From the sequence record OZ346175.1: a DNA stretch of 64,000 nt; one strand, 5' to 3'. The notes under the pieces are model-generated. The model saw nothing but the letters and a program-made list of their open reading frames with translations, had not been told where the DNA came from and made no database searches. This document shows positions 3,930-63,735 of the stretch, piece after piece. The position numbers and the translations under genes were made by a program. Position 1 is the first letter of the stretch; the number at the start of each line of letters is the position of its first letter. The DNA comes from a phage.

Positions 3930-5276
3930 ATGAGTTCGAATATCTTCAGACTTGCTGATAGATTATTCAACCAACCTTTACTAGCCACTGAATCGTTAGC
4001 TCACTCAGCAGCAACTTATGTGAATAACAGATTGCTGGGTGATGTCCAAGCAGCAGTAAACTTTGATAAACCCAAAGGTGAAGCAAGAAGTCTTTTAAAA
4101 GTGAAAGATGACATTGCTATTATCCCTATTATGGGTGGTTTAACCCATCGTATGACATTCATTGATGCAATGTGTACAGGTGGATTAAGCTCTTATGAAG
4201 GTTTGCGTAGAGGCTTTGACGAAGCTTTAGCAGATGAGTCAATCAAGACTATTGTTCTGCACATCGATTCTGGTGGTGGTGAAGCTTCAGGTTGCTTTGA
4301 ATTAGCACGTCACATTATGGCTTCAAGAGGCCAAAAGAAAATTATTGCTTATGTAGATGAGTTCGCTTGTTCCGCTGCATACGCTCTTGCATCTTCTGCT
4401 GAAGAAATTATTGCATCACCAGATGCAGATGTTGGTTCTATCGGTGTAATCATGGTTCATCAGGAATTAACTAAGGCATTTGAAAAGAATGGCGTAACAA
4501 TTAACGTCATCAAAGCTGGTGAGTTTAAAGGTATGGGTTCACCATTCCAAGCACTCTCAGAAGAAAGCAAAGAAAGACTTCAAAAGAGAATTAATGATAC
4601 CTACGCAACCTTTACAGGTTTTGTAGCTGAATCTCGTAAACTCTCTGAAGAAGCTGTAAAGAATACTGAGGCGAATGTTTATTCTGCTCAGGAAGCTCTT
4701 GAACTTGGTTTAATTAACTCAATCATGTCTCAAGATGATTTCTTAAATTACTTACAAGGTTCTGAAGAGGCTCCTGTAAGTTTAAACGTTAACAATTCAG
4801 GTGAAGAAATGACTGAACAAGAAAAGCAAGAACTAGAAGCTTTGCGTCTTCAGGTTGCTCAAATGAAAGCTAAAGAACAGGAAGCTGCTTTGTCAGATTT
4901 GACTAATAAGATTTCTGCTTCTGCTGAAGCTTTTGGATTTGATGCAAAAGAAGCTGCAACGACTATTTTAGGTGCTGGTCTTGATAACCCTCTGAGCGTT
5001 CTGTTTATGAATGCTATGGAAGGTGCTAACCAGAAACTTAATGAAACTATCGCGTCCCATGCTTCTGCAATGGAAGAAAAAGAATCAGAAATTACCAAGC
5101 TGAAAGAAACTGCTGGTGCTGTTCTTGAACATTCCAACGCTATGGAAGAAGTGGGTAATGACGGCGAAGCTGATTTGGTTGAAGAAGAAAAAGAACCAGC
5201 TAAGAATGCTTCCGAAGACACCGCTGAACAACGCAAACTGGCTCTCCAGAATGCTCTAAAATCTCTTATCAAATAA
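3930..5276 (+). CDS. prohead protease (S49/ClpP-like) fused to scaffold-like C-terminal region
   Basis: S49-type motifs IVLHIDSGGGEASG and FACSAAYALASSA; acidic/coiled-coil C-terminal half; precedes capsid gene. Confidence 0.8.
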   Translation: MSSNIFRLADRLFNQPLLATESLAHSAATYVNNRLLGDVQAAVNFDKPKGEARSLLKVKDDIAIIPIMGGLTHRMTFIDAMCTGGLSSYEGLRRGFDEALADESIKTIVLHIDSGGGEASGCFELARHIMASRGQKKIIAYVDEFACSAAYALASSAEEIIASPDADVGSIGVIMVHQELTKAFEKNGVTINVIKAGEFKGMGSPFQALSEESKERLQKRINDTYATFTGFVAESRKLSEEAVKNTEANVYSAQEALELGLINSIMSQDDFLNYLQGSEEAPVSLNVNNSGEEMTEQEKQELEALRLQVAQMKAKEQEAALSDLTNKISASAEAFGFDAKEAATTILGAGLDNPLSVLFMNAMEGANQKLNETIASHASAMEEKESEITKLKETAGAVLEHSNAMEEVGNDGEADLVEEEKEPAKNASEDTAEQRKLALQNALKSLIK

Positions 5277-5287
5277 GGAACACAATA

Positions 5288-5665
5288 ATGGCATATCAAG
5301 GTTTTACTAAGTTAGGTAACAGAGAACCTCTGAATGATATCATTCTTTGGGAACAGATTACCCCAACAGGCCACTCTCGTAAAGAGTACACTCCGGTTGC
5401 TTCAACAGAATACCGTGTAGGTGAAGTTCTGAAAGCAGATGGTACTAAGGTACAAGCTGGAGAAGAAGCCCAAGCAGACTCTGTATGTATCGTTAATTTC
5501 TACGCAGACCTGCAACTGTCTTATCATGGTCAGTTGAAAGTGGTAGGTATCCACCGTGATGCAGAACTAAAAGACCTGCTGACTCTTGAATCAAGCGTTA
5601 ATGCTGCTGAAGTCAAGAAAGCTCTGGCTGCTAAAGGTATTGATTTCGTACCAACTGGCCTGTAA
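5288..5665 (+). CDS. hypothetical protein, possible head decoration protein
   Basis: 125 aa ORF between protease/scaffold and major capsid gene. Confidence 0.45.
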   Translation: MAYQGFTKLGNREPLNDIILWEQITPTGHSRKEYTPVASTEYRVGEVLKADGTKVQAGEEAQADSVCIVNFYADLQLSYHGQLKVVGIHRDAELKDLLTLESSVNAAEVKKALAAKGIDFVPTGL

Positions 5666-5698
5666 TAACAATAATAAGACATTCTGGAGAATTTTACA

Positions 5699-6805
5699 AT
5701 GTTGACTAATTCTGAAAAAAGCAGATTTTTACTTGCTGACCTGACTCGTGAAGTCCAGTCTATCCCAAACACTTATGGGTATATTTCCAACTTAGGTCTG
5801 TTCCGTTCAGCACCACAAACTCAGACAACCTTCCTGATGGACTTGACAGATTGGGATATCAGCTTGCTTGATGCTGTAGACCGCACTAGCCGTAAAGCTG
5901 AAACAAGTGCTCCTGAGCGTGTTCGTCAAATCAGCTTCCCAATGATGTACTTCAAGGAAGTTGAAAGCATTACTCCTGATGAGATTCAGGGTGTACGTCA
6001 GCCAGGTACTGCAAATGAACTAACCACTGAAGCTATCGTTCGTGCTAAGAAGCTGATGAAGATTCGCACCAAGTTCGATATTACTCGTGAGTTCTTGTTC
6101 ATGCAAGCTCTGAAGGGTAAAGTTATCGACGCTAATGGTGTTCTGTACGCAGACCTGTACAAACAGTTCGATGTAACTAAGAAGACTATCTACTTCGACC
6201 TTGACAATCCGAACTCTGATATTGATGCTCACATCGAAGACCTACGTATGCACATGGAAGACGAAGCTAAGACTGGTACTGTAATCAACGGTGAAGAGAT
6301 TCACGTAGTTGTTGACAGAGCTTTCTTCAGTAAACTTACCAAGCATCCGAAGATTCGTGACGCATACCTTGCACAGCAGACTCCGCTGGCATGGCAACAG
6401 ATTACTGGCTCTCTGAGAACTGGTGGTTCTGATGGTGTTCAGGCTCATATGAACACGTTCTACTACGGTGGTGTTAAGTTTGTCCAGTACAACGGTAAGT
6501 TCAAAGACAATCGCGGTAAGACCCATACTCTGGTTAGCATCGATGGTGTTACTCAGGATGGAACTGTAGGTGTAGGGCACGCTTTCCCTAACGTTTCTAT
6601 GCTTGGTGAAGCAAACAACATCTTTGAAGTAGCTTACGCTCCATGTCCGAAGATGGGCTACGCAAATACTCTGGGTCAGGAGTTGTACGTATTTGAATAC
6701 GAAAAAGACCGTGATGAAGGTATTGACTTCGAAGCTCACTCTTACATGCTGCCATACTGCACACGTCCTCAACTGCTGGTTGACGTTCGCTCAGACTCTG
6801 AGTAA
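5699..6805 (+). CDS. major capsid protein (putative)
   Basis: 368 aa ORF following protease/scaffold; strong SD; position typical of HK97-fold capsid gene. Confidence 0.7.
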   Translation: MLTNSEKSRFLLADLTREVQSIPNTYGYISNLGLFRSAPQTQTTFLMDLTDWDISLLDAVDRTSRKAETSAPERVRQISFPMMYFKEVESITPDEIQGVRQPGTANELTTEAIVRAKKLMKIRTKFDITREFLFMQALKGKVIDANGVLYADLYKQFDVTKKTIYFDLDNPNSDIDAHIEDLRMHMEDEAKTGTVINGEEIHVVVDRAFFSKLTKHPKIRDAYLAQQTPLAWQQITGSLRTGGSDGVQAHMNTFYYGGVKFVQYNGKFKDNRGKTHTLVSIDGVTQDGTVGVGHAFPNVSMLGEANNIFEVAYAPCPKMGYANTLGQELYVFEYEKDRDEGIDFEAHSYMLPYCTRPQLLVDVRSDSE

Positions 6806-6827
6806 TGATAGGTAAGGAGGGTTATGA

Positions 6828-7277
6828 ATGTGTTATACAGGCGACCCAGCCAATAACCCTCTTGATAGAGTAAGAATCCTCTGCACAGACACTAATAATG
6901 ATGAAATTCTTATTGAGCAGTCTGTGCTAGAGTGGTTCTATCTAGAATCTGGAAAGGATGAAAAGAAAGCAGCCATCAAAGCTCTTAAATATTTACTCTT
7001 TCAAGTAGCCAAGATGGGAGATGAGAAGGTTGGTGGTGTTTATTTACGTAACTCTTCCAGATTCAAGTCTCTGAAAGCTGTTTATGACGACCTTGTTAAA
7101 AGCTCTGTTTCAGGACTACCCTATGCAGGTGGTATTAATCAGTGTGATATTGACATGCGTCGTCAGAATCCTTGCTCTGTCAAGAAATACACAGAATATG
7201 GTGATGCTGCCAGATACGAAGGCAGAGATTACTGCAACCGTGTTAATGGCGTATTTATTATCGAGCGAGATGAATAA
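6828..7277 (+). CDS. hypothetical protein (head-tail joining region)
   Basis: 149 aa ORF, SD AAGGAGGG upstream. Confidence 0.5.
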   Translation: MCYTGDPANNPLDRVRILCTDTNNDEILIEQSVLEWFYLESGKDEKKAAIKALKYLLFQVAKMGDEKVGGVYLRNSSRFKSLKAVYDDLVKSSVSGLPYAGGINQCDIDMRRQNPCSVKKYTEYGDAARYEGRDYCNRVNGVFIIERDE

Positions 7278-52511: not shown

Positions 52512-53404
52512 GAGAGAAAACTATGAAAACTGTTATTGAAGCCGTCGTCACCGCTCAAGAGAAATTCTTCCACACAGAAAAATTTAATATCATTCAATTC
52601 CCATCTGGAGAGATTGGTGGAAACTTCTCTGAAGATTTTGTTAAGTTTACTGAGCGTAATGCTGGTAAGATTGATAATGTTATAATTACTGTACAGGGAT
52701 ATGACAAAGATACACTGTTTGCATTAGCTTTGGCTAAGGATGCCGTTGACAGTCTTGTTCCCCAGAAATCAGCGATGAAAACCGTTGTTTTCGGGTTCTT
52801 ACCAAATGCTCGATATGACCGCCACATGTTCAAAGGTGATGCAGCAGCACTGAAAGTCTTTGCCAACCTAGTTAATGCAATGGGTTTTGATGCAGTATGT
52901 GCTCTTGACCCTCACAGTAATGTTGCAGAAAACTTATTTAAGTGCTTTCAAAGCATGAAGCAAAAAGATGTGGCAGTACACTTTGCAAGTGACCCACGCA
53001 TTGATTTCTTGGTAGCCCCAGATGCAGGTGCAGCTAAGAAGACTGAAGATACCGCTAAAGAGGTGGATAAACCGTATATCACAATGTCTAAGGTGCGCAA
53101 TCTTAAGACTGGAGAAATCACTGGTATGCGAATCCTTGACGATGTTGATTTGACCGATAAAACTGTCATGATTCTTGATGATATCTGTGATGGTGGTCGA
53201 ACCTTCGTAGAGGCAGCTAAACACCTACGTGAAGCAGGTGCAAAACGTGTGGAACTCTATGTAACTCATGGTATTTTCTCTAAAGGTGTTGAAAACTTGC
53301 TTGACAACGGTATTGACCATATCTACACTACAAACACTTTAGGTGAAGCTAAAGACCGTGGCTTAACACATTACGCCCAAGTTACTGTAGCAACCATTGA
53401 TTGA
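52508..53404 (+). CDS. PRPP synthetase-family protein (ribose-phosphate pyrophosphokinase-like; candidate ADPR-PP synthetase Adps)
   Basis: Phosphoribosyltransferase-type motif VMILDDICDGGRT; 298 aa; adjacent to NAMPT-family gene. Confidence 0.8.
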   Translation: MREKTMKTVIEAVVTAQEKFFHTEKFNIIQFPSGEIGGNFSEDFVKFTERNAGKIDNVIITVQGYDKDTLFALALAKDAVDSLVPQKSAMKTVVFGFLPNARYDRHMFKGDAAALKVFANLVNAMGFDAVCALDPHSNVAENLFKCFQSMKQKDVAVHFASDPRIDFLVAPDAGAAKKTEDTAKEVDKPYITMSKVRNLKTGEITGMRILDDVDLTDKTVMILDDICDGGRTFVEAAKHLREAGAKRVELYVTHGIFSKGVENLLDNGIDHIYTTNTLGEAKDRGLTHYAQVTVATID

Positions 53405-53449: not shown

Positions 53450-55231
53450 ATGACTAAATCGCTTTACGCAGTACCAGCAGGTTTAAACGCAGATGCTTAC
53501 AAATCTGGTCATGTTTACCAGTACCCTAGTGCAACAGAATACTTGATGTTCAACCTGACACCACGTAGTGACAAATGGTTTAACAGCCCCTTAGCAATTG
53601 ATGGTGTAGTAGCTTTTGGTATTCAACGTTTCGTTAAAGATTACCTGATAGACCACTGGAACGCCACTTTCTTTGAACGTGATAAAAAAGAAGCAGTTGA
53701 CGAAATCTTAGAAGTCATGAATGGTGTTCTGGGTAAAGATGCTATTGGTCGAGAGCATTGGGAAGCACTTCACGATTTAGGCTATCTACCAGTTGAAGTA
53801 TACGCTGTAGAAGAAGGTACAGTTGTTCCTATGCGTGTTCCAATGATTGTCTTCCAGAACACTGTTTCAGGTTTCCATTGGGTAGCAGGTTATCTGGAAG
53901 ATGCTTTCTCTGCTGAGATTTGGAAGACTTGCACCATTGCAACTATTGCATTGCACTACAAACGTATCTGTAAGAAGTGGGCTGACCTTACTTGCGACAA
54001 TGACTTACATTTACCTTATCAGTGCCATGACTTTGCTATGCGTGGTATGTCCGGCTTTACCGATGACGCATTTAATGCTGTAGGTCACTTAACCAGCTTT
54101 AAAGGAACTGATAGCTTCCCTGCTGTATACACGGCTAAACGCATCTATGGACAGTCTTACCCAATTTCTGATATTGGTAGTTCTGTACCAGCCACTGAAC
54201 ACTCTGTAATGTGTGCAAACATTGCTTGGGAAGGTGGTAATGAATTGATTGAAGAGGAAAGACGCTTTAAAGGTGAGTTGCAAACCTTCCGTCGTTTCTT
54301 AACAGAAACTTACCCAACTGGTATTGCAAGTATTGTTTCAGATACTTATAACTTCTGGAGAACTGTGTCAGAAATCTTACCAGCACTTCGTAAAGAAATT
54401 ATGGAACGTGATGGTAAGCTGGTAATTCGCCCTGACTCTGGAGACCCTGTACATATTGTCACAGGCTATAAAGCAATCCACTTAGAGTGTGCTAAGAAGG
54501 CTTATTATGAGCACATAAGCAAGCTGGAAGCTAGTGACACAATGTTGAATGCTGTTCTGAACATGAAGCTTGAAAACATCAACTATGGTATTGCTGGATG
54601 GCTACTGTCAGAAGGCTACGAAATGGTTGTTGACAGAGAAGACTTTGAAGTTGCTGATACAGTGATGTTGAAAAATGCTTATATGGTTGGCTCTGCAAAC
54701 GTTGTAACACGTCCTGTAGCAGAGATTGATGGAGCTATTAAGACCCTGTACAACATCTTCGGAGGGACTATTAACTCTAAAGGGTTTAAGGTACTGGATG
54801 AGCACATCGGCCTTATCTATGGTGACTCTATCACGCTGGAACGTGCAAACGAAATCCTGAAGCGTCTGTATGAAATGGGTTTTGCAAGCTCTAACGTAGT
54901 GTTTGGTGTAGGCTCTTACACTTACCAGTACATGACTCGTGACACCTTTGCATTTGCTGTCAAAGCAACTCTTGCAAGCATTGGTGGTAAAGAGATTATG
55001 CTTGCAAAAGACCCTAAAACAGATAGTGGTGTTAAGAAATCTGCCTTTGGTGGTGTAGCACCTATGTGGGATGGTGATAAGCTGAAAGCTGTAGATGGCT
55101 ATGGATTCCAGAGTTTTGCAGATGTACTTGACCACCAAGCTTGTGCTTTACGTTTAGTCTTTAGCGACTCTGAGCAGTTCGGTTATACAACTCTTGGAGA
55201 TATTCGAAATAATATTGACAAGCAGCTTTAA
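53450..55231 (+). CDS. nicotinamide phosphoribosyltransferase-family protein (NAMPT-like; candidate Namat)
   Basis: N-terminal DAYKSGH (cf. NAMPT DSYKVTH); 593 aa. Confidence 0.8.
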   Translation: MTKSLYAVPAGLNADAYKSGHVYQYPSATEYLMFNLTPRSDKWFNSPLAIDGVVAFGIQRFVKDYLIDHWNATFFERDKKEAVDEILEVMNGVLGKDAIGREHWEALHDLGYLPVEVYAVEEGTVVPMRVPMIVFQNTVSGFHWVAGYLEDAFSAEIWKTCTIATIALHYKRICKKWADLTCDNDLHLPYQCHDFAMRGMSGFTDDAFNAVGHLTSFKGTDSFPAVYTAKRIYGQSYPISDIGSSVPATEHSVMCANIAWEGGNELIEEERRFKGELQTFRRFLTETYPTGIASIVSDTYNFWRTVSEILPALRKEIMERDGKLVIRPDSGDPVHIVTGYKAIHLECAKKAYYEHISKLEASDTMLNAVLNMKLENINYGIAGWLLSEGYEMVVDREDFEVADTVMLKNAYMVGSANVVTRPVAEIDGAIKTLYNIFGGTINSKGFKVLDEHIGLIYGDSITLERANEILKRLYEMGFASSNVVFGVGSYTYQYMTRDTFAFAVKATLASIGGKEIMLAKDPKTDSGVKKSAFGGVAPMWDGDKLKAVDGYGFQSFADVLDHQACALRLVFSDSEQFGYTTLGDIRNNIDKQL

Positions 55232-55806: not shown

Positions 55807-56553
55807 ATGCGCATGGTAAATGACCACGCAGAAGTGATTAAGAGTTCAACTTCTTTAGAGACGTCTCAAGCACAGATTACAATGACACCTGAGATGTTCA
55901 GCCTTTTGAGTTCTGGTGTATACACCTTTAAAGAAAGGGCAGTGATTCGTGAACTGTCATGTAACGCAGTAGATGCTCAGAAAGAAGCTGGAAAAGAGAA
56001 CATCCCATTCCATGTGCATTTACCTACTCGTTTTGAGCCTTACTTCGAAGTTCGTGATTTTGGAACTGGATTGACTCATGATAAAGTAATGAGTTTGTAT
56101 CTGAACTATGGGGCTTCTACGAAGAATGACTCCAATGATTACATTGGTGCAATGGGTATCGGCTCAAAATCCCCATTTGCAATTGCTCAGTCATTCACAG
56201 TATCTAGCTATGTTGATGGTGTTGTTAATAAGTACTCTGTTTACCTTGAGAATGGTATCCCTCAAGTAACTAAGCTTACTACCAACCCAACAAATGAACC
56301 CAATGGTTTAGCTGTACGTGTGGCAGTTGCTGACCATCGTATTTCAAAGTTCTTTGAAGAGGCTGGTCACGTATACTCATACTTTGCTGTAAAACCAGAA
56401 AGTAACATTGTATATGATGATGTATTAGCAGATATGAATGTCATTGCCCGTGAAGAGGGTGTTTATGATGCTATGATTCATAAGCAAAGCTGGCGTTCTA
56501 GTGGCAACAGGACAGAGTTTAATGTGGTGATGGGTAATATTGCCACCCAGTGA
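55807..56553 (+). CDS. rIIA: rIIA-like protein, N-terminal GHKL ATPase part
   Basis: Bergerat-fold motifs: N-box ELSCNAVDAQ, G1 VRDFGTGL, G2 GAMGIGSKSPF; 248 aa ending in TGA. Confidence 0.5.
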   Translation: MRMVNDHAEVIKSSTSLETSQAQITMTPEMFSLLSSGVYTFKERAVIRELSCNAVDAQKEAGKENIPFHVHLPTRFEPYFEVRDFGTGLTHDKVMSLYLNYGASTKNDSNDYIGAMGIGSKSPFAIAQSFTVSSYVDGVVNKYSVYLENGIPQVTKLTTNPTNEPNGLAVRVAVADHRISKFFEEAGHVYSYFAVKPESNIVYDDVLADMNVIAREEGVYDAMIHKQSWRSSGNRTEFNVVMGNIATQ

Positions 56554-58172
56554 ACATGGAAGCATTACTTGGTGATGATTTCTTCAAAGTCTTGCCAGAG
56601 TTTTTCCGTAGGAGCGTAGACCTTGTAAACATCTACATGCCTATTGGTTCAGTTGCTATTGCAGCTTCTCGTGAAGCATTGCAGATGAATGACACGACAA
56701 AAAATGTTATCATTGAGGCTACTAAAAAGATAACTGAAGCCATTACAAAGGATGTTATCAAGAAAGTTAATAGCCAACCTACACTCATGGATGCTGCACA
56801 GGCTTATGCTGAGTTACGTTTGAACTCACGAGAGATGTTTAATGCTGTGTGTCCAAAGCTAGAGTGGGGTGGCGTTAAGCTTGATTCTCTGGAAGAAGAA
56901 TTGCTAAACATTCGTCGTGGAATTATCTACGCAGAAGACGGCTCAGTCATTTACGAACGTGACGGTAAAGGTAATATTAAGGTTGATAGGAACGGGAACA
57001 ATATCCCTAAAGTAGATTATCTTTATGACCCAGTTGCTTATGTCAAGTTTAACTCTTTAGAGAGTAAGATTCGTGCAACAGCACTATCCTACACTCAAGA
57101 GGCGAGCATGTTCAACATCTTTGGTGCAATGCGCAAAAGCCAGATTGGACAGTTTTTGTTCGTGATTAATGACCGTCGAAATAAAAATGGCACTGAGAAG
57201 ACTGTTGGGCGTAACCAAATCTTGCGTGGTGCATGTCGAGACTATGCAAGTGAGTCTAGTCTGTTTCACAGATACAATGGTATTGTCTTTGTATTCTCGA
57301 CTGAAAAAGAGTTAGATGACTTAATCAATCTGCACAAACTTGATAAAAGCTTGCTAAAGATTGTGAAAATGTCTGATAAGGAACACCATTACCAGCGTAA
57401 AGAAGCTGTAAGAGGTGTTGTAAAACTCTGGAAAGCTGTTCCAGCAGAAGGTGTAGCCTCCTACAAAGAGGTGTCAGAGGACTTAGACACAATTGAAGAA
57501 CCTCAGCTTTACATTAAGGCAATTGGTGACACAGTTGATGGCGAATGTTTTTGCTCATCTCCAGAAGATGTAGCTAAGTCAGTTGCCAATGTCATTGAAA
57601 AGACAGTCTATGTTTTCCGAAAAGCAAATTGGAAAAAGATACCAGAAGACTGGATTGAAGTAGATGAGAAGCTCTTGAGCAACAGCTTAACTAATGTTCA
57701 CTGGATTAATCATAACAGGTATATGACACGTATCTATATGAATGGTGTCCTAGACCTGACAAGCAGTTGGATTATTGCCAGAAACTTTACGTTCAATAAC
57801 AGGAAGATTTCTCGTGGCTATTGCTATTCACGGGATACAAACAAAACTATCTTCCTAGAAGGTAATGAAGAGGCTGTAGAGGCAATGTTTGGTAAAATCC
57901 AGTATGTTGCTGCACCATTTGCATACACTTACACTATTAGTGTGTTGAAAACTTTGAAAGATTGTCTTGACAACGATACAAAGCTTTACAAGAAAATTAA
58001 GAAAGCTGGTGACCGTATGGTTATTAAGGTGACAAACTACCTTTCAAAAAGAAAACAAGAAAACTTCTTGCTTTCCCATTTAGATTGGAATAAAGTGTCA
58101 CCCATCGAAGTGAGTAAGTTCTTAGGTTTTGATGTGAAGTGTGTTCCAGAAGGAACTACAGTTTACGATTAA
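56550..58172 (+). CDS. rIIA-like protein, C-terminal part (separate ORF in -1 frame)
   Basis: 540 aa ORF starting GTG 56550 / ATG 56556, immediately after stop of GHKL ORF. Confidence 0.45.
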   Translation: MNMEALLGDDFFKVLPEFFRRSVDLVNIYMPIGSVAIAASREALQMNDTTKNVIIEATKKITEAITKDVIKKVNSQPTLMDAAQAYAELRLNSREMFNAVCPKLEWGGVKLDSLEEELLNIRRGIIYAEDGSVIYERDGKGNIKVDRNGNNIPKVDYLYDPVAYVKFNSLESKIRATALSYTQEASMFNIFGAMRKSQIGQFLFVINDRRNKNGTEKTVGRNQILRGACRDYASESSLFHRYNGIVFVFSTEKELDDLINLHKLDKSLLKIVKMSDKEHHYQRKEAVRGVVKLWKAVPAEGVASYKEVSEDLDTIEEPQLYIKAIGDTVDGECFCSSPEDVAKSVANVIEKTVYVFRKANWKKIPEDWIEVDEKLLSNSLTNVHWINHNRYMTRIYMNGVLDLTSSWIIARNFTFNNRKISRGYCYSRDTNKTIFLEGNEEAVEAMFGKIQYVAAPFAYTYTISVLKTLKDCLDNDTKLYKKIKKAGDRMVIKVTNYLSKRKQENFLLSHLDWNKVSPIEVSKFLGFDVKCVPEGTTVYD

Positions 58173-59427: not shown

Positions 59428-59976
59428 ATGAAGAAATTGATTCTAGGTTTGTGCTTAATGTTTACAGCACACTTATCTTATGCAGTTGACTGCCCAGAGC
59501 TATCAATTAGCCAAAAAGTAAACATGTTAAAAGCTTACCAGTATGGTGAGAATAACATGGGTAAAGGTTGGGGTATCACTCTAGCTGCTATAGCCTTACA
59601 AGAGTCAGAGTTAGGTCTGAAGGTAGAGAATAAAAAGACACATGATTATGGTATCTTCCAGAATCACTTGAAGACTGTTGTAAAGCGTAACAAAATCAGT
59701 CCTAATGTGGCTAAAAAGAAACTCTTAAAAGACTTTGACTATGCTGCTAAGGAAACTCACAAAGAGCTTGAGTTTTGGACAAAGGTGCATGGTCAGCCAA
59801 AGTCAAAGAAGACTTTACAAAAAGTCTTAGCATCATATAATGCTGGGTATTCGTACAGAATCCCTAAAGCTAAGAAATATTCTCAAGATGTTTATAACAA
59901 TATGAAAGTAATTGCTCAATGTGAATTTGCAACAAACATTTCTAAGGTAAACCATGAAAAAATTAAGAAAGTCTGA
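59428..59976 (+). CDS. lytic transglycosylase (SLT domain) with signal peptide; candidate endolysin
   Basis: Signal peptide MKKLILGLCLMFTAHLSYA; SLT-like catalytic region AAIALQESELG. Confidence 0.55.
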   Translation: MKKLILGLCLMFTAHLSYAVDCPELSISQKVNMLKAYQYGENNMGKGWGITLAAIALQESELGLKVENKKTHDYGIFQNHLKTVVKRNKISPNVAKKKLLKDFDYAAKETHKELEFWTKVHGQPKSKKTLQKVLASYNAGYSYRIPKAKKYSQDVYNNMKVIAQCEFATNISKVNHEKIKKV

Positions 59977-60649
59977 TGAAGTATTGTGCCATGCTTATGA
60001 CTTACATCCTCATGAGTTAGTTCTTGATTCCTGTGTATGGACTCCAGAACAGTGCAGGGATTTTGAAGACACCGCAAGAGAAGTTGTATGTTCACTTGAA
60101 GAGTTCCACACATCAGAGCCAATTGTGAATGTTGTAGATAAAGAGACTGGACAAACTATAGGTGTAAGTCGTGATAGCTTAGTCATAGTCAATAAAGACC
60201 TTGTAGAAAAAGGTAACCTCATCTTAGCAGATATTGATGGTGTTCTTACAAATTTTAATCACGAAGATTGCTCAACGGAATTGACTGATGGGTCATTCTC
60301 ACAGTACACTAATCTTCTTGACTCTGTAAGAGCAAAACCAACGTATGTCTTTAGTATTATTGATGCAATTACTAATCATGCTGCCATTGGACTCTTGACA
60401 GCGAGAGGTGAATCTCAGAGAATACCTACTGAGATGTTTTTAAGGCACAATATAGAGCATGATTACTTGCTTTTTATGCGTGGTTTTGGAACTAACTCTA
60501 TAAGTGCAGAAAGTTTGAAAGTGAGGATGATTCAATCTTGCATTCTTCCTTACTTTAATATAGTATGTTTTATAGAAGATACAGAGAAGAATGTTCAGAA
60601 GGTAAACAGAATACTTCCACACATCAAAACCATGTTAGTTAAACATTGA
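59954..60649 (+). CDS. HAD-superfamily hydrolase, 5'(3')-deoxyribonucleotidase-like (putative)
   Basis: HAD motif I ILADIDGVLTNF. Confidence 0.45.
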   Translation: MKKLRKSDEVLCHAYDLHPHELVLDSCVWTPEQCRDFEDTAREVVCSLEEFHTSEPIVNVVDKETGQTIGVSRDSLVIVNKDLVEKGNLILADIDGVLTNFNHEDCSTELTDGSFSQYTNLLDSVRAKPTYVFSIIDAITNHAAIGLLTARGESQRIPTEMFLRHNIEHDYLLFMRGFGTNSISAESLKVRMIQSCILPYFNIVCFIEDTEKNVQKVNRILPHIKTMLVKH

Positions 60650-62258: not shown

Positions 62259-62486
62259 ATGAAAGTAATTCTAGCCAGAGATAAAAAGACACGGAAAATT
62301 ATCCGGTCAGCAGTATTTATTGGAAGAAATGAAGTGATTCCTTTTACAGCAAATGATGCGATAGTCTACAGGAAAAAATTAGCATTCAGTTATTGCTTAC
62401 GTGGCTTTATCTCCCAGCCATTGGAAGACTTTAAAAGTCGTTGTGGTAAAGGTATCATCATTCAAGAGGCAATTATCAATGGCTGA
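62259..62486 (+). CDS. hypothetical protein
   Basis: 75 aa ORF. Confidence 0.4.
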   Translation: MKVILARDKKTRKIIRSAVFIGRNEVIPFTANDAIVYRKKLAFSYCLRGFISQPLEDFKSRCGKGIIIQEAIING

Positions 62487-62679
62487 CTTCTGCAAAGACT
62501 GTTCTATCGAAATGTTTGGACGTGATACAGGTGACTTAAAAGGTCTTATCACTGAAGACGACTTTAAAGCTGGTTATGCAATGCCAGTAATCTGTGAAGG
62601 TTGTGGGTGTATCTGGGTAGACCACGAAGGGCAACGTGTAAAACCTTCAGAGGATAAAGAATCTTGGGAGAGATGTTAA
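62479..62679 (+). CDS. small cysteine-rich (zinc-binding?) protein
   Basis: Start set at ATG 62479 with SD; CKDC...CEGCGC cysteine clusters. Confidence 0.4.
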   Translation: MADFCKDCSIEMFGRDTGDLKGLITEDDFKAGYAMPVICEGCGCIWVDHEGQRVKPSEDKESWERC

Positions 62680-63465
62680 ATGGGTATTGTAAAAATCATC
62701 AATGGGGATATCTTCTCAGCATTTGATAAAGGTAAGTTTGATATTATTGGTCACGGTTGTAACTGTATGAACTTAATGGGTGCAGGTATCGCTGATAAGA
62801 TTTCTAAACTTTACCCAAAAGCATATGAGACCGATACAGAAGTTTATCTGTATGCAGGTGGTATAAGTCACAAACCCTGTGAAAATTTGCTAGGCAATTT
62901 CTCTGTAGCACGTTTAAAACAAGGCCGTATAGCCAATCTTTACACTCAGCTTAAGACTGGTAAAGATGCCCGATACAGTGATTTAGAGTCATCTTTGAAG
63001 CAACTTAACAGATACTGTGAAGTTAATCAGTTGAAGAAAGTTGGCTTACCTATGATTGGTGCAGGTATCGGCGGACTAGACCCTCAAGCCGTCACAGTTA
63101 TCATTAATCAGGTGATGAAGAGTGTAGATGTTTATCTGTATGTCTACGAAGGAGAGATGTACCACAAGTTACGCTCAGGTTGGAAGAATTACTGTGAACC
63201 AGAATACTTTGCAGGTGTAGTAGTGTTCATAGACGACACAGTTACCCTCTTCAGACGAAGAAAAGGTAAGGTACATCAAAGTAACCCTCCGGTTGAAAAG
63301 ATGTCTCTAAGTAACGCTCTAGTTACCCACCTGTCGAAGAGCAATCACAGGATTGCAGTAACATTTGGCAGTGATGCAGATACATATATCTATGCAAGAA
63401 CTGATGAGGATATCGAGTTAATCTTCTCTTCACCAGAGCTTACCTTCTTAGACGCAAAGAACTAA
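62680..63465 (+). CDS. macro-domain protein (ADP-ribose binding/processing) with C-terminal extension
   Basis: N-terminal GDIFSAFDKGKFDIIGHGCNCMNLMGAGIA and LPMIGAGIGGLDP resemble macro-domain binding loops. Confidence 0.55.
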   Translation: MGIVKIINGDIFSAFDKGKFDIIGHGCNCMNLMGAGIADKISKLYPKAYETDTEVYLYAGGISHKPCENLLGNFSVARLKQGRIANLYTQLKTGKDARYSDLESSLKQLNRYCEVNQLKKVGLPMIGAGIGGLDPQAVTVIINQVMKSVDVYLYVYEGEMYHKLRSGWKNYCEPEYFAGVVVFIDDTVTLFRRRKGKVHQSNPPVEKMSLSNALVTHLSKSNHRIAVTFGSDADTYIYARTDEDIELIFSSPELTFLDAKN

Positions 63466-63495
63466 GAAACTTCGTAGTAAATTCACAATAGACTA

Positions 63496-63539
63496 AGCCT
63501 TTCTTATCTGGTAAATTTTTCAGGTAAGGAGGGCTTTTT
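63496..63539 (+). terminator. terminator-like hairpin with G.U pairs
   Basis: AAGCCTTTCTTATCTG / CAGGTAAGGAGGGCTT arms followed by TTTTT. Confidence 0.4.
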
Positions 63540-63735
63540 CATTTCAGATTTGTGCAGGTAGAGTTCTGTAGAGAAATCTATAGAGAAAATTTTGAACTCC
63601 AAAGAGAAAATTCATTCTCAAACTGTGCAGGTAATCTCCAAAGAGCTTTTTCATTTTCAAAACGTGCAGACCCCGCTCAGGTCGGGCAAGAAAAATCATT
63701 TTAGAATTGTGCAGGTAGGTGGGTGCAGGTGGGGA
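63537..63735 (+). repeat. array of four direct repeats sharing TGTGCAGGTA core
   Basis: Exact TGTGCAGGTA at 63551, 63624, 63708; degenerate copies at 63663 and 63723; flanking TTCATTYTCARA conserved; spacing 73-84 bp. Confidence 0.6.

Follow-up and report, generated by a model that had tools for sequence, protein, structure and literature searches.

ADP-ribose (ADPR) chemistry is central to anti-phage systems such as DarTG, Thoeris and the SIR2 and TIR NADases, and macrodomain proteins of phages have recently been recognised as a kind of counter-defence enzyme. For phage T4, tk.4 is reported to be the only gene required on a host with DarTG2; T4 is sensitised by its clean knockout, and the gene was named adfM, for anti-DarT factor Macrodomain (HIDEN-SEQ preprint 10.1101/2025.11.20.689424). 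The same name is carried by PhiKZ gp104, which strips ADP-ribose from DarT2-modified DNA (PMC13309987), and a parallel is offered by the phage NADAR protein AdfN, an anti-DarT1 DNA hydrolase (PMC11825919). In bacteria, SCO6735 of Streptomyces coelicolor protects against DarT as an orphan antitoxin and acts on both protein and DNA (PMC9411070). Phage Bas63 further encodes the experimentally defined NARP1 enzymes, gp79 and gp80 (preprint 10.1101/2024.02.11.579819).

Here, we analysed the gene at positions 62,680 to 63,465 of a 64,000-nucleotide stretch of phage DNA (sequence record OZ346175.1; the whole stretch is called the window below), which encodes a macrodomain followed by a second domain. 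The window belongs to a Felixounavirus; the region is 92-97% identical in DNA to ~200 genomes of this group, and the protein is 96.2% identical to gp95 of Bas63 (JohannRWettstein), labelled 'putative phosphatase'. Virtually every Felix O1-like phage, of a group that serves Salmonella and E. coli typing and therapy, carries the gene, which is usually labelled 'phosphatase' or 'hypothetical'. Our analysis suggests, with a probability that we put at roughly one half, that its product is an orphan ADP-ribosyl hydrolase for counter-defence, most likely against DarT2.

The two-domain macro protein and its alleles

62680..63465, plus strand: coding sequence of the two-domain macro protein (261 amino acids and stop; Bas63 gp95 ortholog)
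62680..63150, plus strand: macrodomain, residues 1-157 (Pfam Macro, AlphaFold2 model, Foldseek, PADLOC/NCBIfam DarG)
62752..62793, plus strand: first ADP-ribose-binding loop, HGCNC...MGAGIA, including the invariant N28 (codon 62761-62763)
62947..62949, plus strand: codon of Gln90 in the invariant NLYTQ motif, at the site of DarG Lys80, TARG1 Lys84 and SCO6735 Gln85
63049..63075, plus strand: second glycine-rich (diphosphate-binding) loop, PMIGAGIGG, then LD, like the GGLD of DarG
63151..63462, plus strand: C-terminal domain, residues 158-261 (AlphaFold2 model; helix, six-strand beta-rich body, final helix)

The open reading frame (ORF) is intact, with an ATG start, 261 amino acids and a TAA stop read from the sequence. 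A preliminary description of the gene had assigned macro-like ADP-ribose-binding loops to the N-terminal ~150 amino acids and had named a search against macro-family profiles, structure prediction and catalytic-residue mapping as ways of checking this, and the assignment was confirmed. Pfam PF01661 (Macro) matched residues 25-141 over profile positions 2-117 of 118 with 33 bits (E 6.5e-8), above its gathering cut-off of 22 bits, the family PHROG 335 was matched end to end (E 3e-110), and a sequence search of the PDB returned macrodomains throughout (TARG1/OARD1, coronavirus nsp3 Mac1, DarG and Poa1p). The AlphaFold2 model, built from an input of 31 homologues, is confident over its full length (mean pLDDT 90.3; pTM 0.89) and predicts a three-layer alpha/beta/alpha macro fold in residues 1-157. 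Foldseek comparison of this model with the PDB gave 237 matches at E<=1e-3, and all 50 of the matches listed have a macro fold, comprising natural macrodomains and designed hydrolases of the OSH55 series. The best neighbours were TARG1 (E 6e-10, TM 0.81-0.85 on target), the DarG proteins of T. aquaticus and M. tuberculosis, and Poa1p, with TM values of 0.75-0.85 on target across TARG1, DarG and Poa1p; viral macrodomains were likewise among the top matches. Residues 1-157 are confirmed as a macrodomain.

Among the models of defence proteins, DarG was the sole match both in PADLOC (E 3.7e-14, profile positions 17-147 of 329, macro part only) and in NCBIfam (antitoxin_DarG, NF048014; 51.2 bits, E 1e-13, positions 4-154 of 338, likewise the macro part), and with both models the window protein outscored T4 Tk.4. 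Tk.4 is itself a homologue, with 34% identity (E 2e-23) across the whole macrodomain. Relatives were found by tblastn in 2,780 phage records, in which the T4-like ones adjoin vs; in T4, tk.4 is indeed the neighbour of vs (checked in NC_000866).

Both motifs quoted in the preliminary description were recovered: residues 22-38 read IIGHGCNC...MGAGIA and residues 123-135 read LPMIGAGIGGLDP. Their glycine-rich loops, MGAGIA (33-38) and IGAGIGG (126-132), vary little or not at all and align with the loops in DarG and TARG1. Residue mapping, for which we used a DarG sequence 100% identical to PDB 5M3I, placed Asn28 at DarG Asn22 and Gln90 at DarG Lys80 and TARG1 Lys84, and both Asn28 and Gln90 are invariant in the 31 homologues. 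Gly131 aligns with TARG1 Asp125 and is not invariant in the same set, some members having Ala or Lys. Precedent for a glutamine at the lysine site comes from SCO6735, where Gln85 is equivalent to the DarG/TARG1 lysines and Q85A abolishes hydrolysis of thymidine-ADPr DNA (PMC9411070); Gln90 corresponds to Gln85 by transitive alignment via TARG1 and DarG, with no direct sequence hit between the two proteins. The net charge and pI of the macrodomain, considered as a clue to a DNA substrate, proved uninformative, with charges of -9 to +5 across the family.

The remainder of the protein, described beforehand as ~110 amino acids of unknown function, comprises the 104 residues 158-261, whose detectable relatives, by sequence or fold, lie only within its own protein family. 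In the AlphaFold2 model it is predicted to form a separate, compact, mostly beta domain. Pfam searches with this C-domain from 16 members gave nothing consistent, a profile search of the PDB gave only beta-propeller noise (E>0.1), and the only match in BFVD was a Felix-like macro protein of the same family. A profile search of 1.84 billion representative proteins recovered only two-domain macro relatives, two fragments and artefacts; five long repetitive proteins (reverse-transcriptase concatemer, YDG, sortilin, PQQ propeller) were discarded as artefacts of repeat scoring. An 'AAA ATPase' Pfam match to residues 148-224 was noise (E 0.26), and comparisons with DarG models gave no support to the C-domain as a mimic of the DarG C-terminal domain.

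Within the C-domain, Pro174 and Gly179 are invariant and Tyr236 nearly so, and no polar residue is conserved. The last point favours a binding or scaffolding role over a second enzyme, and the C-domain may be a non-catalytic module that binds a partner or substrate. It evolves about twice as fast as the macrodomain, the mean pairwise identity among 19 two-domain homologues being 30.8% versus 57.6%, and it holds eight of the ten differences from Bas63 gp95. The two-domain form is limited to Ounavirinae-like genomes with the gene order Namat - rIIA - rIIB - ... - polynucleotide kinase (PNK)-like - ... - macro.

At this locus, two deeply divergent alleles were found. A metagenomic Felixounavirus contig (L007) and 13 phage records, including finno, BPS17L1, Si3, ECML-1 and phiWec172/174/177, carry a B allele that is only 41% identical to the window protein (A allele), annotated in one record as 'high-affinity ADP-ribose binding module'. 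The flanking proteins of the contig are 97-100% identical to those of the window (PNK-like protein 97%, Namat 98%, upstream 66-amino-acid protein 100%). In DNA, the identity between contig and window falls from 95-98% to ~40-70%, breaking ~15 nt into the macro ORF, and recovers patchily only from the terminator 3' of the gene onward. Genes that interact with variable host factors typically show cassette-like replacement of this kind, and the two alleles at one locus look like signs of an arms race with host-driven diversification. Separately, VpaE1_ev035 (LR699048, 7158-7931) has the B allele where VpaE1 (KM657822, 7209-7979) has the A allele; the former is named as a VpaE1 derivative, and its B allele would fit an exchange of alleles between Felixounaviruses by recombination.

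The macro gene is dispensable on laboratory E. coli, as judged from knockouts of Bas63 gene 95, which are fit on laboratory strains (beta 0.62-0.83 in the PhageMaP supplementary fitness table). In the same data the NARP1 genes 79 and 80 have similar values and essential genes have negative ones; the main text of PhageMaP does not mention gene 95, macro or DarTG.

A counter-defence reading and its rivals

The idea of a second counter-defence activity linked to NAD+ and ADP-ribose, raised in the preliminary description, is better grounded now that the T4 homologue Tk.4 is known to be needed against DarTG2 and the macro family is found physically linked to NARP1. A role against DarT2 in particular is suggested by the Tk.4 phenotype, the DarG-like profile, the glutamine precedent of SCO6735, the diversifying locus, the dispensability on laboratory strains and the NADAR parallel. 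In the mechanism that we propose, the macrodomain would bind an ADP-ribose adduct and cleave the bond at C1'' of the distal ribose, releasing free ADP-ribose. The active site would be of a Gln type, formed by N28, Q90 and the two glycine-rich loops, with the glutamine in place of the lysine of DarG and TARG1. The likeliest substrate would be the ADP-ribose that DarT2-type toxins put on thymidines of single-stranded phage DNA, and its removal would let replication proceed in DarTG2-carrying hosts, as reported for Tk.4/AdfM. The C-domain, confined to the Ounavirinae-like lineage and fast-evolving, would contribute the binding of a partner or substrate and take no part in catalysis.

Several points weigh against this reading. 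The catalytic lysine of DarG is absent, and the NCBIfam score of 51 bits compares with an equivalog cut-off of 250 bits. The evidence on T4 Tk.4 is genetic and comes from a preprint, and the phage AdfM with biochemical proof, that of PhiKZ gp104 type, has a Lys-type site and is a member of another phage macro family. Our literature search found no biochemistry on a Gln-type phage macrodomain, no work on the sensitivity of Felixounaviruses to DarTG2 and no experiments on the Felixounavirus protein, and the role proposed for the C-domain draws on just two features, its rapid divergence and the absence of conservation among its polar residues. Furthermore, a survey by comparative genomics made the case that the targets of phage Macro domains are mostly soluble ADPr derivatives (PMC9503650), and the recurrent embedding of family members between Adps and Namat, described next, reads more naturally as a small-molecule ADPR function.

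The preliminary description had also pointed to a candidate NARP1 pair in the window, and by its identity to the Bas63 enzymes this pair is genuine.

52523..53404, plus strand: Adps, the NARP1 ADPR pyrophosphokinase (99.3% identical to Bas63 gp79)
53450..55231, plus strand: Namat, the NARP1 nicotinamide ADPR-transferase (98.7% identical to Bas63 gp80)

The macro gene of the window lies 7.4 kb and ~15 genes past the end of Namat, in the same rightward block; a position within or directly beside the Adps-Namat pair is found in other family members. All Ounavirinae-like macro loci with enough upstream flank have NARP1 7.5-9.3 kb upstream, including those of relatives only 35-41% identical. Outside the Ounavirinae, Namat-like or Adps-like genes lie within 10 kb of 8 of the 50 macro loci (IMG/VR). 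Seen from the Namat side, a same-strand macro of the window family lies within 10 kb in 16 of the 68 non-Ounavirinae loci (L100-L167), all 68 of which have Adps adjacent to Namat, and in 10 of the 38 Namat clusters formed at 70% identity. The linkage expected under independence is ~1%, a rough estimate and not a formal test; it assumes a macro in 5.5% of phage records, a 20-kb linkage window and a ~100-kb genome, and the lineages are not fully independent. When all ORFs in the Namat flanks were clustered without prior assumptions, the top real neighbours besides Adps and Namat were a HAD-like hydrolase (12/38) and the window macro family (10/38), a conserved antisense ORF inside Namat having been discarded from the ranking. 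Four distinct types of operon place the macro gene between Adps and Namat, with overlapping or nearly abutting genes:

L008 (Vibrio phage IW18, a T5-like member of the Demerecviridae), 4129-7159: Adps-like gp175 - macro gp176 - Namat-like gp177
L105, 4066-7072: Adps - macro - Namat
L120, 8338-11719: Adps - macro - Namat (L120/L122 type)
L154, 8719-11698: Adps - macro - Namat

The macros of the four types are only 19.5-37% identical to each other, and the signature residues, Asn and Gln, are retained in all the NARP1-linked macros. NARP1 operons appear to have the macro gene as an optional third member. A 2022 survey described that phage ADPr-processing domains co-occur and that NADAR domains lie near NAD+ salvage genes (PMC9503650); our literature search found no paper naming both NARP1 and a macrodomain, and the NARP papers checked do not mention macrodomains.

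This linkage brings forward a tentative alternative, improbable but the first to be weighed, in which the protein is an accessory enzyme of NARP1 that turns soluble, C1''-blocked ADPR derivatives into free ADP-ribose, the substrate of Adps. Candidate substrates would be the 1''-2' and 1''-3' cyclic ADPR isomers that TIR NADases and Thoeris produce, or the ADPR-1''-phosphate or ADPR-cyclic-phosphate (ADPR-cP) arising from decay of ADPR-PP, and such an activity would widen the recycling into NAD+ and might destroy immune signals. Besides the tight operons of four types and the rank of the macro family, second among real neighbours after the HAD-like hydrolase, ADPR-cP has been seen in Bas63-infected cells as a likely breakdown product of ADPR-PP (preprint 10.1101/2024.02.11.579819), the N-terminal half of the window protein resembles Poa1p, an ADPR-1''-phosphatase, and soluble substrates were predicted for phage Macro domains (PMC9503650). 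The NARP1 preprint, however, speaks of a 'two-gene operon' and a 'two-enzyme pathway', with genes 79-80 solely responsible for the pathway and its counter-defence effect (10.1101/2024.02.11.579819), and gene 95 is outside the operon that was deleted. NARP1 is absent within 10 kb of about 85% of the single-domain macro loci, and the window gene is itself outside the operon. T4, whose member has the anti-DarTG2 phenotype, has no NARP1 beside tk.4. Moreover, Tk.4 nests among the NARP1-linked macros in a simple neighbour-joining tree, so that no 'NARP1 subfamily' stands apart, and the clustering of counter-defence genes could give linkage without a shared pathway.

The anti-DarT2 and the NARP1 functions are chemically compatible, as both would cleave at C1'' and release free ADP-ribose. 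One might speculate, in a step that we hold to be doubtful, that the Gln-type macro family is an unrecognised third and optional module of NARP1 type, which converts C1''-blocked derivatives (cyclic ADPR isomers from TIR/Thoeris, ADPR-1''-P, ADPR-cP or ADP-ribose adducts) into ADP-ribose for Adps and Namat. If so, a single enzyme would feed the resynthesis of NAD+ while also quenching immune signals or lesions based on ADPR, and the orphan, fast-evolving C-domain of the Ounavirinae form would add host-specific binding. The recurrent linkage, of which we found no mention in the literature, suggests that phages deploy the removal of ADP-ribose jointly with the rebuilding of NAD+, and the hypothesis is directly testable in Bas63, where knockouts and NARP1 assays exist.

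An unlikely alternative is that the protein erases other host ADP-ribosylation, laid on RNA or proteins by transferases other than DarT2, such as mRNA-modifying, CmdT-type enzymes or other toxin ADP-ribosyltransferases. The TARG1/ALC1-like class, which contains the nearest structural neighbours, acts on protein, RNA and DNA adducts, SCO6735 is active on both protein and DNA (PMC9411070), and the strong allelic divergence would fit adaptation to varying host factors; against this, no homologue is linked to such a system, and the only phenotype in the family is the anti-DarTG2 one.

A1pp is an old name of the macrodomain. The 'phosphatase' label of the gene goes back to the RefSeq note on T4 tk.4 (NC_000866), 'contains A1pp phosphatase motif', and is a motif-based transfer without direct support. 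Together with the similarity to Poa1p, this label speaks for a housekeeping ADP-ribose-1''-phosphate phosphatase of RNA repair, which would clear the by-product of 2'-phosphotransferase-dependent tRNA ligation; a gene annotated as 'polynucleotide kinase' lies in the same block, and RNA ligases lie on either side of the IW18 operon and turn up repeatedly near NARP1 (6 of 38 clusters). Yet in the window neither a 2'-phosphotransferase nor an RNA ligase was seen close to the macro gene, and by sequence the protein matches DarG models better than Poa1p, so that we regard such a role as quite improbable. Least probable of all, and very much so, is a non-catalytic sponge, in which the macrodomain would do no more than bind and sequester immune signals derived from ADPR: macrodomains bind ADPR with high affinity, and the annotation of the B allele quoted above is in keeping with this, but N28 and Q90 are invariant across very divergent members and occupy sites needed for catalysis in DarG-type enzymes and SCO6735 (PMC9411070), which argues for an enzyme.

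Expression signals and neighbouring genes

62666-62672, plus strand: Shine-Dalgarno-like GGGAGAG, 7 nt 5' of the ATG and within the 3' end of the upstream 66-amino-acid ORF (read directly from the sequence)
63495-63546, plus strand: intrinsic terminator with a 17-bp stem, an 8-nt loop and a T-run (dG -25.8 kcal/mol, z -6.6)

The ATG of the macro gene abuts the stop codon of the upstream 66-amino-acid ORF, and the two are likely to be translationally coupled. The product of this upstream ORF (window 62479-62679) is rich in cysteine pairs (CxxC ... CxxC) and resembles a small zinc-ribbon protein; Pfam gave no match to it. Given the strong terminator 3' of the macro gene, the gene closes the rightward transcription block, at the end of which it had been placed beforehand. 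The block is long, early to middle in expression, and also holds NARP1, rIIA/B and nucleotide-metabolism genes.

In the intergenic region past the terminator, at window positions 63530-63717, there are 3-4 copies of a direct repeat, CTTTTTCATTT(N6-9)TGTGCAG(GTA). Within the window its exact decamer TGTGCAGGTA is confined to this region, where it occurs in three copies. The contig with the macro gene of only 41% identity has parts of the region conserved at 100%, and an Rfam search of the region gave no match. The Bas63 annotation has two small minus-strand ORFs in this region, which look spurious.

Within the block, rIIA (window 55807-58172) has lost 1 nt compared with Bas63, and what is one gene of 788 amino acids in that phage is here split into two ORFs of 248 and 540 amino acids; the break lies near 56544 and represents either a genuine frameshift mutant or a sequencing error. 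The gene annotated in Bas63 as 'polynucleotide kinase' (window 59954-60649) has no Pfam hit, and its relatives show only faint or weak matches to the HAD phosphatase domain of PNKP, which makes the kinase label doubtful. It is not the HAD-like hydrolase linked to NARP1 in other phages, to which it has no BLASTP similarity. Other recurrent neighbours of NARP1 are ribonucleotide reductase subunits, a calcineurin-like phosphoesterase-S4 fusion (7/38), the RNA ligase (6/38), an ATP-dependent DNA ligase (6/38) and a SLOG protein of the YspA/cpYpsA type (5/38), which suggests a wider neighbourhood of NAD+/ADPR and RNA-repair functions.

Comparison with known ADP-ribosyl hydrolases

The protein is a new architecture, a macrodomain with an orphan domain and two deep alleles, of a recently recognised kind of phage counter-defence enzyme. 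If the anti-DarT2 role is true, a further major group of phages would use the AdfM strategy, its active site being of the Gln type. The divergent alleles and orphan C-domain make the locus promising for a new protein-protein or protein-DNA interaction.

The described systems differ in how closely they resemble it. NARP1 shares its genome, its transcription block and a dealing with ADP-ribose, but is defined as a two-enzyme pathway of which the macro protein is not a described component. Poa1p, the yeast ADP-ribose-1''-phosphate phosphatase (6LFQ-6LFU), has a similar N-terminal region, H-x-C-N-C...G-G-I-A (Foldseek E 6e-9), and one homologue is named 'Poa1p_like' by NCBI, but its sequence match is weak (E 0.008) and covers residues 8-56 only. 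TARG1/OARD1 (4J5Q/R/S) is the best structural match and the best sequence match in the PDB (phmmer E 7e-6); its Lys84/Asp125 dyad, however, is replaced by Gln90 and Gly131. Phage macrodomains were not among the enzymes tested in the JACS 2026 paper on hydrolase specificity.

Of the phage proteins, the PhiKZ gp104-type AdfM differs in being Lys-type, with the DarG motif FPTK kept (FPTKDNWR in the PA7 ortholog), and forms a separate phage macro family with 351 phage records, whereas Tk.4, the window protein and their relatives all have N-L-Y-T-Q. T4 Tk.4 belongs to PHROG 335 as well and shares the HGCNC, NLYTQ and IGAGIG motifs (in general form HGCNC, N-x-x-T-Q and P-x-I-G-x-G) and the glutamine at the DarG Lys80 site, and both genes are orphans without a toxin partner, expressed from an early region. 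It differs in being a single, stand-alone domain of ~155 amino acids (155 in T4), to which the window protein adds the 104-residue C-domain, and in having no NARP1 beside it.

DarG of T. aquaticus and M. tuberculosis (5M31, 5M3E, 5M3I) has the macro fold (Foldseek E ~2e-9, TM ~0.8 on target), the asparagine N22 at the site of N28, and a second loop of GGLD type, but its catalytic Lys80 is Gln90 in the window protein. In the window, we looked for a DarT-binding C-terminal domain and an adjacent darT gene and found neither, and the partial-length score of 51.2 bits is below the DarG equivalog cut-off of 250 bits. SCO6735 has, in an ALC1/TARG1-like macrodomain, glutamine at the key site as in the window protein; in contrast, it is a bacterial, DNA-damage-inducible housekeeping protein with no second domain. 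From these comparisons, the window protein probably works like a hydrolase of the DarG or SCO6735 type, yet it is not DarG, since it has no such lysine, no DarT-binding domain and no toxin neighbour.

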